The notes below the pieces were generated by a model. The model did no database searches and was not told the origin of the DNA. It saw only the letters and a program-made list of their open reading frames with translations. The position numbers were made by a program, and so were the translations under genes. Source: Craspedostauros australis (lineage: Eukaryota). Taken from it: DNA of 42,095 nucleotides. The stretch covers positions 1 through 42,095 of the forward strand of contig JALAGF010003894.1 in the NCBI GenBank assembly GCA_030167865.1, in the 5' to 3' direction. Below are positions 29,247 to 33,499 of this stretch, in pieces (position 1 is the first letter of the stretch; the number at the start of each line of letters is the position of its first letter).

Positions 29247-32200
29247 ATGAACGACCTGACGGACATGGACACCTTCCATTCAGCCAGCGACGGCATGCTC
29301 TTGGATCCGGAGCAGGCGCTTGACGGCGAAGGCCAATACAACGATCCAGATGATTATCTCAATTACAATGGGACTGATGCGATGCAACCTGATTCTTCGC
29401 AGTTTGCCAAGGCCACGGTGGAAGGCGCTGGCATGTGGAAGTCCTGGACGCGCAGTTTCAACAAACCGATCATGGCCATGCTCGATCTCTTCGACAATGC
29501 CATCGATGCCTGCCTGCAGGAGCAGGATCTGCAGTCCAGCAAGTCTCGCTACGCTCAAAGTCAAACGCCGATCATCACCGTGCAGAGCGACCTCAGCGTC
29601 CACAAACTGACAGATGCAAAAGCACACAGGAATGGGCGAAATGGCAACGGCGGGGAGGCGGCAGCATCTGACTCCGGCAATCCAACAGGGACAAGCGACA
29701 GAACCAAGGCGAGGCCCACGGGAGAAGGCGTGCTCATGATGAACTCATCCGTCCATCCCATCCCGCCCATGGCGCAGATCCTCACAGTCTACCGTTCCTC
29801 CAAGCAGAACGACTCAGAGATTGGAGAAAATGGGGTCGGCATCAAGCAGGCATGTGCGCATCTCAGCGATGTCTCCATCATTTGCACCAAATCAAGCTCC
29901 ACTAAGTTCGGCCTGGGTGTTCTGTCGAAGGACCTGCAAAAGAAGGAACCCAATCTGCCATCCGTCCAGCTGCCGGACGGCTCCATGTCGCAGAGCATGC
30001 CCTCTGCCACCAAGGTCTTGACGGATTTGGCAGCGCGCCATCCTCAAACCTTTGGTTCAGCATTTCGGTCCTACGGTTCGTCCGAACAAACCACGAGCAA
30101 CGGTGAAGCAGTGCGGCTCGGCGCGGAGAAGGTCGCCAAGGTCTTCGAGTGCATCACGCAGCGCGATGAATGGAAGGACCATCCACATGTCTTCGTCCTC
30201 ATCATGTGCAACCTGAGACATCAAGGACAGGTCGCCGATACATTTGAGATTCGTGAAAGCACAGGTGGCGCTAACGCAGATAAAGACGCAGTCTCCGAGG
30301 TAAGCCTGATCCAAACAAAGATCAGCGCTTCTGCTCGTCTCCTCGAAGAGCTGGAGAGGGAGTTGCCAATGCGGTACCTGCATGTTCCTCTCCATTTCCA
30401 TATCCAGGTGCAGTGGGATCGAATCGAGTTTCAGTACTGGGAACGGAGACTCGTCGAGCTCACCAGATTCGACGTGATGTACTCCAAAATCACGCCCTTC
30501 CAAAAGATGCAGAATTGGTGGCATTTGGAACAAGTGCTGGCCGACATCAAGGAAGGCGGGGACGCCAACGGCAACGGCAAACAACTTGAGTCTCGCGCAT
30601 CACTCGCAGCGGCCAATGCAAAAAAGGCCGACGAGGATGCCGCTGTTCCTCAACTTGGAAATGGGATGAAAGATGGTATTCAAGACCTTGCAATGCAGGA
30701 CTCGGATGGTGCAATAATGGCAACCCCAGAGCCCACCATCAAGCAACGACCTCTCAAGAAGATGGCCAGAAAGACACCATCGCGAAGATGCAGTCCGAGA
30801 GCACCTGTGCCTGTGGCCAAGTATCACCAAGAGGAGGCCATCGAAGCACCGTCGGATCCTCCGAAGGTAATCAAGAAAGCCGCTTCACCAAAACGAGCGC
30901 CCAGAGCGCCGTTGAAGCCGATGCCACCACCAAATCCCAAAACGATCTCCCAGATGCGCATTTGGTGCGGATTCGACCCCATTCGCGCGTCCTCCAAGAC
31001 GTCCGCCGCGTCCATGTATTTGTACAGCCGCACGTCCGGCCGGTTGATCAAGTATTCGAAGGACTGTCGCGCGGAGCTCGGTCTCGTCACCAGCGGCTCC
31101 GAATTCGCGCAGGGGCTGACCGTCATTATTGACGACCTGCACGGGACACTGCCGCTCAACCCAACGAAGCAGGATGTCGCATTTGGGCTGGAGGCTCACG
31201 GCGAAACGCACGAGACCAACATGCAGGCCTGGGTGGGCGGGTGCACCCACACGTACTGGAGGTTCTACGCGGACAGACTTGGAACGAAGACGAACGTTGC
31301 CAAGGCGGTCTGTCAACAGCTTCCGAAGATCAAATCGCTGGTGGAAAGGTCGACTACGATGAAAACGCGGAAATCAGGCCGGATGACGGTGTTTCCGCAG
31401 CTTTCGACAGGATCGTTCCTGCGCTTCGACTTGCTGGGTTGGAATCAAAAGCTGGGAGTGATCCGATGTCCGAAGAGCAAGCGGGATCGTCTCATTCAAA
31501 AGGATGGAAAGGACTGCGCTGCGCGCGTCGATTTTGAGAAGGCATTACTTTCGGATGATGTCGGCAACGGTGATGAAGATGGTGACTATGATTCCTCATC
31601 CGAAGCTCCCAGGACTCCGAAGAAGAGGAAGTCGACCCCGCGGTCGAGGAAGAGAAAGGCTGCTAACAAGAAGCAAGCCGCAGCCATCCCCCCTGACATT
31701 GTGGACCTTCTCAATGATAATGGAAATCTCGAAATGGATGTATTCGCTGACGACACCGGGAGATCGTCTGGCAGGACACAGGCCCAGTGGAAGTCGCAAC
31801 TCCAACAGCGCAGCGATGCCAACAAGGAACTGCAGGCGACCATCCGAGAACGCGACGAACGCATCAAGGCTCTCGAAGAAGAGATGAAGGAGCACAGCGC
31901 CAAGAAGGACGCGACGCTGGCAAAGGCCAGGGAATACCGTCGCAAATACAAGGAAGAGCAGAGGTACTGCCAGGAGATGCTGTCGACGGAGAGACAGACG
32001 GCGGAACGATGCCGCGGATTGCATCAGGAGAACATGCGGCTGATGGACAAGGTGGACGAGCTGAAACGGATCTGCCGCAAGAACAAGATCAACATACGCG
32101 GTGATCTCAGTTCGGACGATGATGACTTGTACGACAACGACGAGGGCATCACGAGAGCGAAGAGAAGCACATCATCTGGCGCAAACACAAACCGCAAAAG

Positions 32201-32339
32201 GAGGGCGACTCGATCGAGGAGCAGGTCCAGCAGCAGGCGCGCATCGTCACAGCCAGTGCAGAATGCTCCTTCCTTCAGCGATGACGACTCTGACGACGAC
32301 CACGACGACGACGACGATGATGATGATTCTGTGCTTTGA
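29247..32339 (+). CDS. Divergent MORC-like GHKL ATPase with S5-like domain and C-terminal coiled coil (1030 aa)
   Basis: N-box AMLDLFDNAIDA, G2 box IGENGVGIKQACAHL, FGLGVLS, YL..P, MORC S5-type GLTVIIDD...LPLNPTKQD..F, NLS-like KKRKS..RKRK, coiled coil ~31780-32080, acidic tail. ATG 29247 taken as the first Met in the open frame. Confidence 0.72.
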   Translation: MNDLTDMDTFHSASDGMLLDPEQALDGEGQYNDPDDYLNYNGTDAMQPDSSQFAKATVEGAGMWKSWTRSFNKPIMAMLDLFDNAIDACLQEQDLQSSKSRYAQSQTPIITVQSDLSVHKLTDAKAHRNGRNGNGGEAAASDSGNPTGTSDRTKARPTGEGVLMMNSSVHPIPPMAQILTVYRSSKQNDSEIGENGVGIKQACAHLSDVSIICTKSSSTKFGLGVLSKDLQKKEPNLPSVQLPDGSMSQSMPSATKVLTDLAARHPQTFGSAFRSYGSSEQTTSNGEAVRLGAEKVAKVFECITQRDEWKDHPHVFVLIMCNLRHQGQVADTFEIRESTGGANADKDAVSEVSLIQTKISASARLLEELERELPMRYLHVPLHFHIQVQWDRIEFQYWERRLVELTRFDVMYSKITPFQKMQNWWHLEQVLADIKEGGDANGNGKQLESRASLAAANAKKADEDAAVPQLGNGMKDGIQDLAMQDSDGAIMATPEPTIKQRPLKKMARKTPSRRCSPRAPVPVAKYHQEEAIEAPSDPPKVIKKAASPKRAPRAPLKPMPPPNPKTISQMRIWCGFDPIRASSKTSAASMYLYSRTSGRLIKYSKDCRAELGLVTSGSEFAQGLTVIIDDLHGTLPLNPTKQDVAFGLEAHGETHETNMQAWVGGCTHTYWRFYADRLGTKTNVAKAVCQQLPKIKSLVERSTTMKTRKSGRMTVFPQLSTGSFLRFDLLGWNQKLGVIRCPKSKRDRLIQKDGKDCAARVDFEKALLSDDVGNGDEDGDYDSSSEAPRTPKKRKSTPRSRKRKAANKKQAAAIPPDIVDLLNDNGNLEMDVFADDTGRSSGRTQAQWKSQLQQRSDANKELQATIRERDERIKALEEEMKEHSAKKDATLAKAREYRRKYKEEQRYCQEMLSTERQTAERCRGLHQENMRLMDKVDELKRICRKNKINIRGDLSSDDDDLYDNDEGITRAKRSTSSGANTNRKRRATRSRSRSSSRRASSQPVQNAPSFSDDDSDDDHDDDDDDDDSVL

Positions 32340-32810
32340 TTGTTTTGTTTTGGATACAGGATGCAGGTGCAAGCACAAGTCATGACGATGGCAGGAGTGC
32401 CGATGATCAACATGGATTCCAGTTAAACGAATCACATAAAGTAATCCAATCTTCATACAATGGGGCATTGCTGCTACGATCCATACCTACAAACCAAACA
32501 TTATTGGAGTATCCGTTTCATGGATGTCCAGAAGTCCACGTTGTCGTAGAGTCTCTACCCATCGACGACTACTCGAGAGCCATGAGCGTTTTTGTGTACT
32601 GCCCTCTCTTGGCTTCCTCTTCGGAGGAGACCACATGGAGCAGCTGTTGCGGGGTCCATCCCGTTGCGTTCTGTCTCATTTCAGTCCTTCTGTTTCCTGA
32701 AGCTACCCATCTGTTCCCTCCTTGGCCAAAGTGGAGGGAATCTTGACGATGGTATCTTTGTGTGTCCCTTCCACGGAAGATACCTTTTGGTCCAATCCAA
32801 GAAGAACACC

Positions 32811-32923
32811 CACGTGACAGCTCACGTTTTGCAATTGCATTTTCGTTTGTTGGGTGTGGCCACGTGTGCGCGATTTGCAATTGTGCGGGAAGATCCTGAA
32901 GCGCAAAGCTCCGAGAACGTGAG
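32811..32923 (+). promoter_or_regulatory. Cluster of G-box/ACGT and TTGCAATTG motifs upstream of the small ORF
   Basis: CACGTG at 32811 and 32861, CTCACGTT at 32821 and its reverse complement at 32916, TTGCAATTG at 32829 and 32875, all 300-430 bp upstream of ATG 33239. Confidence 0.4.
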
Positions 32924-33238
32924 GAAAAACAATGGAATCGTGTCAGAACTTTTGACAAAAATGGAAGTGATCTTGTGCTGGGTGGAATCAACGCGATGGC
33001 CTTCGCGATTGGTGTTGTGTTCAACGACAAAAGTCGGTGGCGAAGGAAACCTTTTTCCATCTGCTTGTTTGCTTGTGTCTCTCGCTTGTTCTCCGCGTTG
33101 GATGATGCATGGTGGCCTCCACAGATCCGTATTGGATCACGCCATCCACACATCGATGGCCTCACCCCCACACAAAAACAGAGACAAGCACAACAAGACA
33201 TCGCAACGCTCACCCAAACACCCACGCATTATATCACG

Positions 33239-33499
33239 ATGATCCGCCGCCTCGCCATCCAGCTCCAATCCAAGCTCTCCGTCCGCGGAATTGCCGCCAA
33301 GAAGTCCACCAAGGCAACCTCGTCCGGCGTTGCCATGATGTCCGCGTCTCCTTGCTTCGCGTCGTCTTCCAAAGCCGCAACAGCATCCACCATGCCTGCG
33401 CTTCCCAACGCCACTGCCGCCGCTCGGGCCTCGCCATCGTGGCAAGGATTCAACTCAACGCTCGATGGTCCTTCTTGCTGTGAGCTGACCGGTTTCTAG
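33239..33499 (+). CDS. 86-aa microprotein, mitochondrial-presequence-like, ending ...FNSTLDGPSCCELTGF
   Basis: A/C-rich 5' leader, strong C-ending codon bias (atc cgc cgc ctc gcc atc cag ctc caa tcc aag ctc tcc gtc cgc), double stop TAG TAA. R/K/S/A-rich, with no acidic residue until the last 11 aa. Confidence 0.7.
   Translation: MIRRLAIQLQSKLSVRGIAAKKSTKATSSGVAMMSASPCFASSSKAATASTMPALPNATAAARASPSWQGFNSTLDGPSCCELTGF

Follow-up and report, generated by a model that had tools for sequence, protein, structure and literature searches.

Does a short open reading frame whose product is basic, free of acidic residues over most of its length and seemingly devoid of a folded domain represent a protein-coding gene, and if so, of what kind? 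The question is raised by an 86-codon frame (ORF1) of the raphid pennate diatom Craspedostauros australis. It lies in a stretch of 42,095 nucleotides (hereafter the window; contig JALAGF010003894.1), in which long intronless ORFs occur on both strands. A first-pass annotation of the DNA letters had singled out ORF1 for its codon bias and had read its product as almost entirely a mitochondrial presequence. It had proposed that the product is a sensor or decoy of mitochondrial import, the precursor of a Cys-Cys peptide, or an arrest peptide acting at a stop codon embedded in a hairpin. We therefore asked of this locus whether it is transcribed, whether ORF1 carries a coding signal, whether it has relatives, and what the RNA behind it and the protein itself look like.

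Evidence for an intronless, polyadenylated transcript

ORF1 is contained in a contig of 1049 letters which matches the genome from 33188 to 34228 with 0 differences and 0 gaps (Table 1). Past position 34228, the contig ends in eight loose A residues (AAAAAAAA), where the genome continues from 34229 with other letters. We read these residues as a poly(A) tail. As they are absent from the genome and the contig is unbroken, they indicate an intronless, polyadenylated transcript of about 1.04 kb from the plus strand. The contig stems from one sequencing run kept as contigs, the RNA label of which is a guess, and contigs of this sort do not fix the true 5′ end, the transcript ends, the strand or the expression level. 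We hold the transcript at 33188-34228 to be real with high confidence.

A second contig of the same run covers 31853-32460, the 3′ end of the upstream gene, with one repeat skipped. Within the mapped stretch (31800-35600) the contigs of this run leave 32461-33187 and 34229-35600 without cover, which was not counted as evidence. The 1080-nt contig from a transcriptome source that carries the downstream frame ORF2 may represent the same data as the 1049-letter contig.

Table 1. Positions of the features of the ORF1 locus in the window.
Feature	Positions	Strand	Description
Transcript unit	33188-34228	+	1041 nt, single contig without gap or joint; putative poly(A) site at 34228
5′ leader	33188-33238	+	at least 51 nt, no ATG (the ATG list of the transcript begins at 33239)
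ORF1	33239-33499	+	86 codons (ATG at 33239) plus TAG (33497-33499); first AUG of the contig; gene-like codon phase
Second in-frame stop, TAA	33500-33502	+	adjoins the TAG, forming tandem stops
Hairpin with stop codons	33491-33515	+	7 bp, -8.5 kcal/mol, z -2.88; 1 of 200 shuffles folds as well
Structured RNA segment	33488-33862	+	about seven hairpins directly behind the tandem stops; MFE and centroid structures nearly identical
ORF2	33708-34118	+	136 codons, in a different frame from ORF1; on record as a protein from the 1080-nt contig

The genes on both sides lie on the same strand. The upstream gene (29247-32460, +) encodes a 1030-aa protein with a Ser/Arg/Asp-rich tail and no Pfam family above the cut-off. 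The contig on this gene reaches 32460, approximately 120 nt beyond its stop, and the sequence skipped in mapping is a short repeat at 32285-32353. The downstream gene (35073-36161, +) shows TPR-like matches slightly under the Pfam cut-offs. Of 8000 candidates that were scored against it, 367 proved to be homologues with an E value of 0.001 or better. All of the named ones are from diatoms: the best, from Fistulifera solaris, is 56% identical, and the other names are Cylindrotheca, Amphora, Mayamaea and Bacillariaceae. There was no identical protein among the matches listed, and the window's copy seems to be absent from the collection at that length. On the minus strand, an ORF at 32569-33201 (210 aa, Cys-rich) extends over the spacer and into the beginning of the transcript; by eye it has the look of a chance ORF. 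No paralogue or repeat of the transcript was found in the window, the best non-self matches having E values of 0.036 (blastn) and 0.94 (tblastn), and the repeats within the locus are short two-copy matches only.

A further ATG is present upstream of the contig, at 33156 (+), 32 nt 5′ of the contig end. It opens a frame of 28 codons, out of frame with ORF1, whose TGA (33240-33242) overlaps the ORF1 start as ATGA. If it were transcribed, ORF1 would be a re-initiation ORF.

Coding signal of ORF1

The start codon of ORF1 is located 51 nt from the 5′ end of the contig in the context ATCACGATGA, with an A at -3. The coordinates and the length of 86 aa that we obtained agree with those of the first-pass annotation. 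The frame stays open in the 5′ direction to an ATG at 32996, which would give a product of 167 aa. This extension scores -0.074 bits per codon and lies mostly outside the contig, which begins at 33188.

Codon use was scored with a table drawn from 8 to 10 of the window's long ORFs, whose own status as genes is unverified. ORF1 yielded +0.16 to +0.17 bits per codon in frame versus -0.22 to -0.27 in the off-frames, in keeping with the codon bias reported initially. Its in-frame score would place it 3rd of the window's 157 ORFs of 60-150 aa, and the frequency of C at third codon positions is 0.45, versus 0.22-0.35 in the ten long ORFs. The codon phase has a z score of 3.05 and was matched by a fraction of 0.0003, or about one, of 3000 shuffles of ORF1 itself. 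An in-frame stop was absent from 1399 of those 3000 shuffles, 0.0007 of which scored equally well, and the codon score was equalled by 0.19% of 6359 null ORFs. In positive controls, the same measure gave z 7.7 for the TPR gene and z 3.9 for the 3′-terminal 300 nt of the upstream gene. These values are to be read with the fact that ORF1 had originally been picked for its codon bias, and that approximately 0.3 of the 157 ORFs are expected at p = 0.002 by chance.

The signal sets in at the ATG and vanishes past the stops (-0.07 upstream and -0.05 downstream). Within ORF1, the first 50 codons score +0.22 and the last 36 codons +0.07 per codon. The signal is thus located in the first 60 codons or so, an A/S/T-rich part of low complexity with C at 50% of the second positions, and it fades in the C-terminal motif. 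After the tandem stops, the next 73 codons of the frame contain no stop; they score -0.053 bits per codon and show no coding-like codon use. Readthrough or frameshifting to a longer product was rejected in view of the tandem stops, the lack of coding signal in these 73 codons and the proximity of stops in the other two frames.

The RNA of ORF1 shows no unusual degree of structure (z -1.0 to +1.2 in 150-nt windows), like coding sequence. The length of ORF1 is at chance level: when the transcript was shuffled 3000 times with dinucleotides preserved, the first-ATG ORF had at least 86 codons in 425 cases. Since it begins at the first AUG of the transcript and has a gene-like codon phase, we conclude that ORF1 is probably a bona fide short coding sequence, and on balance we lean towards its being translated. 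The first-pass annotation had remarked that gene predictors often miss ORFs this short; however, the identical 86-aa sequence is already present in a public protein set, with eukprot as its source.

Search for relatives of ORF1

A word-based protein search with ORF1 returned only ORF1 itself (one of 6 candidates). A HMMER search over 1,835,955,588 representative proteins, with no length limit, yielded ORF1 itself and one artefact. The latter, P0003 (1435 aa; E 9.9e-05), was the sole non-self match; we rejected it as a tandem-repeat artefact, with a match of 26 residues and 9 identities that recurs 17 times. In metagenome contigs, none of the 596 matches to patterns derived from the ORF1 protein was a relative, and a 22-mer of the hairpin array had no exact match. 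Pfam, NCBIfam and the PDB sequences contained no match to ORF1. In the ESM Atlas, the best score was 0.88, under the lead threshold of 0.9, with unnamed bacterial or phage clusters. ORF1 is therefore an orphan, with 0 true homologues versus 367 for the neighbouring TPR gene. Such a lack of homologues among the proteins searched is an outcome that the first-pass annotation had itself listed as speaking against its proposal. Also, no report of diatom small ORFs of this kind was found in the literature searched.

The nearest relatives on record are distant, at 56% identity or less for the conserved TPR neighbour, and transcriptome ORF callers often drop ORFs of less than 100 aa. For these reasons the missing homologues are weak evidence either way, and they fit a young protein gene and a non-coding RNA alike. 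With no homologue to compare, ORF1 gains no support from purifying selection, which counts against a coding role.

RNA structure behind the stop codons

Downstream of the ORF1 stops the transcript continues for 729 nt, such that 70% of the RNA lies behind ORF1. According to the first-pass annotation, the stop is embedded in a hairpin and structured RNA follows, and our folding calculations agree on both counts. The first 375 nt from 33488 (+) gave a z score of -4.17, and 0 of 100 shuffles folded as well. The opposite strand of the same segment gave z -1.82 (4 of 100 shuffles), and the distal part of the transcript (33863-34228, +) gave z -0.52 (31 of 100). Four overlapping 150-nt windows in the segment have z scores of -2.4 to -2.9, and those of the distal part are near 0; among 58 background windows of this size the fraction at z -2 or below is 0.02, about one window. 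In the hairpin at the end of ORF1, the stop codons are found at the top of the 5′ arm and in the loop. The window for this hairpin was chosen post hoc, as were those for two others, at 33575-33617 (z -4.0) and 33673-33702 (z -3.6). The segment is thus predicted to fold unusually well and in a strand-specific manner, with the proviso that structure scores from a single sequence without covariation are weak evidence of function. Rfam gave 0 matches at the gathering score in the whole window; the single sub-threshold match, HOTAIR_2, is at chance level (12.5 bits versus a gathering score of 60; E 4.6).

These properties bear on the most serious alternative to a protein-coding gene, namely, that the transcript is a long non-coding or bifunctional RNA in which the hairpin array is the functional element and ORF1 is a chance frame, untranslated or irrelevantly translated. 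The strong and strand-specific structure argues for it, as does the large share of the RNA that is 3′ of ORF1. ORF1 and ORF2 both lack homologues, and the lengths of both are at chance level, given that some ORF of at least 136 codons was present in 731 of the 3000 dinucleotide shuffles of the transcript. However, a codon phase reached by only about one in 3000 shuffles, in a frame that begins at the first AUG in a good context, would not be expected of a chance frame, and the array matches no Rfam family. Considering also how little single-sequence folding scores say about function, we regard this alternative as unlikely, if worth keeping in mind.

In an improbable bifunctional arrangement, a presequence-like orphan ORF1 would end in the first hairpin of a 375-nt, strand-specific stable domain. 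The arrival of ribosomes at the tandem stops would then remodel the RNA domain and so set the stability, the localisation or a non-coding activity of the RNA. Plant ENOD40 is a bifunctional RNA of this type, combining a small ORF with a structure whose conservation is defining. The ORF1 transcript resembles it in its length of about 1 kb, its polyadenylation, its small 5′ ORF and the stable RNA domain behind. In contrast, there is no sequence similarity between the two, and the likeness is one of layout and of the predicted fold of one sequence. No ENOD40-like coding/non-coding hybrid in diatoms was found in the literature searched.

The downstream frame ORF2

No ORF of the transcript is longer than ORF2, which is recorded as a protein, and the context of its ATG (ACAGCGATGG) has a purine at -3. 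Were it the real product of the locus, ORF1 would be a long upstream ORF regulating it. However, its codon score of -0.05 bits per codon is at the median of the null: 48% of the 6359 null ORFs reach it, as do 0.063 of 3000 shuffles of ORF2 itself and 0.54 of the 90 that are stop-free. By the difference between in-frame and off-frame scores it ranks 38th among the 157 ORFs of 60-150 aa. Eight ATGs, that of ORF1 included, precede it in the contig, and its first 50 codons are within the hairpin array. The word-based search returned only ORF2 itself, Pfam and NCBIfam contained no match, and the best score in the ESM Atlas was 0.89, below the 0.9 lead threshold and again with unnamed bacterial or phage clusters. 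ORF2 is probably a chance ORF and not coding, and its public protein call is probably a longest-ORF artefact that selected the wrong ORF of the transcript. With ORF2 tested, no downstream ORF with a coding signature was found for an architecture of upstream ORF and main ORF, which we consider quite improbable here.

Features of the ORF1 protein and the mitochondrial reading

The predicted ORF1 protein has a pI of 10.2, 9 Lys and Arg and 2 Asp and Glu residues, and 50% of it is Ser, Thr, Ala and Pro. The first acidic residue is at position 76, confirming that residues 1 to 75 are acid-free; the last 19 residues are WQGFNSTLDGPSCCELTGF. We modeled its structure with AlphaFold without an alignment, which gave a mean pLDDT of 46. 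The sole secondary structure is a helix at residues 3-13, and the mean pLDDT is 71 over residues 1-10 and below 50 for residues 41-86. No folded mature passenger is therefore predicted after the presequence-like part, as had been proposed.

We compared the N-terminal region with 199 control ORFs. The first 30 residues include 7 Lys and Arg and 0 Asp and Glu, and 5 of the 199 controls have at least 7 basic residues without an acidic one in that region. An N-terminal run of at least 75 residues free of Asp and Glu is found in 2 of the 199. In charge and composition, ORF1 is thus like a mitochondrial presequence, i.e., net positive, without acidic residues and rich in hydroxylated and small residues. 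Helical amphiphilicity is a feature that correlates with mitochondrial import. That of the ORF1 N terminus is ordinary, no better than that of chance ORFs: its 11-residue hydrophobic moment (0.543) is reached by 46 of the 199 controls and its 18-residue moment (0.161) by 182. The initial reading as a mitochondrial presequence is thus one from composition.

Set beside mitochondrial matrix-targeting presequences, ORF1 has the same net positive charge, richness in Ser, Thr, Ala, Leu and Arg, and a predicted N-terminal helix, along with its 75 acid-free residues. It differs from them by its ordinary amphiphilicity and the lack of a passenger domain, and a signal of 75 residues would be unusually long. 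Arg16 and Arg63 would, by eye, be compatible with R-2 or R-3 processing sites. The protein has three cysteines (39, 79 and 80), two of which are adjacent. An intermembrane-space protein of the twin-Cx3C or Cx9C type was considered and rejected, with only three Cys, no fitting spacing and no helices predicted there.

A basic, acid-free make-up is also the outcome of a young ORF in C-rich DNA, without selection for targeting. In this context, Lemire et al. in 1989 reportedly studied random peptides. N-terminal targeting signals are described as highly degenerate (PMC4585086). Given this degeneracy, a young basic ORF may be importable into mitochondria without having evolved for import. Judged by its sequence, the ORF1 product seems rather doubtful as a protein that reaches mitochondria.

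Mitoregulin and BRAWNIN are examples of mitochondrial microproteins of animals, which are conserved and mostly have a membrane helix. ORF1 is neither conserved nor endowed with a membrane helix. It is similar to these proteins, to which PIGBOS (PMC6814811) also belongs, in that it is shorter than 100 aa, that its transcript could pass as non-coding and that it may go to mitochondria.

The special mechanisms proposed at the outset, arrest at the hairpin stop, sensing or decoying of import, and release of a Cys-Cys peptide, are jointly very unlikely. ORF1 does stop within a 7-bp hairpin followed by a stable hairpin array, and its presequence-like composition and lack of a predicted folded domain are what those proposals would call for, but none of the three gained supporting evidence. 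Ribosomes pass through a 7-bp hairpin without hindrance, which counts against arrest at the stop. As no orthologue was found, neither a conserved C terminus nor a fixed stop position, which the first-pass annotation had sought as support, is demonstrable. Moreover, the coding signal is weakest in the C-terminal part, there is no downstream ORF with a coding signature to control, and the amphiphilicity is ordinary. Regulatory arrest peptides, such as the fungal arginine attenuator peptide, CMV gp48 uORF2 and plant CGS1, are defined by a conserved C-terminal sequence together with a controlled downstream cistron. ORF1 is like them in being short and in that its end might act on its own RNA, and unlike them in having no demonstrable conserved C terminus and no coding-like downstream cistron.

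Finally, a donor-like GTGAGC at 33480, 17 nt 5′ of the stop, would fit ORF1 as exon 1 of a longer spliced gene, an objection already raised in the first-pass annotation; this is most unlikely and is excluded for the contig at hand, since it is unspliced through 33480, remaining collinear with the genome through 33480-34228 and ending in the A-tail, and no downstream frame has a coding signature.

Discussion

We favor, with middling confidence, the explanation of ORF1 as the coding part of a small orphan gene, intronless, polyadenylated and restricted to the species or genus of this diatom, with a structured 3′ UTR. The gene may be of de novo origin. Scanning ribosomes would translate ORF1 into a basic protein of 8.7 kDa, almost wholly disordered except for a short N-terminal helix. 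The mitochondrial import machinery might accept its basic, hydroxylated and acid-free make-up, and the product would perhaps be imported into the organelle and processed or degraded there. The 3′ part of the transcript would be an untranslated region in which ORF2 is a chance ORF, and the hairpins predicted in the first half of that region would most likely affect the stability or the translation of the mRNA. A 3′ UTR of 729 nt after an ORF of 86 codons is long for a diatom mRNA, which counts against this explanation.

Like orphan and de novo small-protein genes, ORF1 is short, intronless and predicted to be disordered, has no outside homologue, and makes up a separate transcription unit flanked by conserved genes; it departs from them in that its translation is putative and a de novo origin only a candidate. 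The kind of gene, an orphan small ORF, perhaps mitochondrial-looking, is already known, and this instance is uncharacterised though its sequence is public.

The main yield of our analysis is the existence, with high confidence, of the transcript, along with the realization that the public protein call on it probably concerns the wrong ORF. Less usual is the array of hairpins beginning at the stop, the one element of the locus that could lift it above the ordinary. Should this segment be functional, the locus would represent a rare algal case of a coding/non-coding hybrid transcript. Should ORF1 be translated, it would be one more species-restricted microprotein in a diatom. It would then also provide a test case for whether the cell by default takes the products of young, unevolved ORFs for mitochondrial presequences, and for how it handles them.
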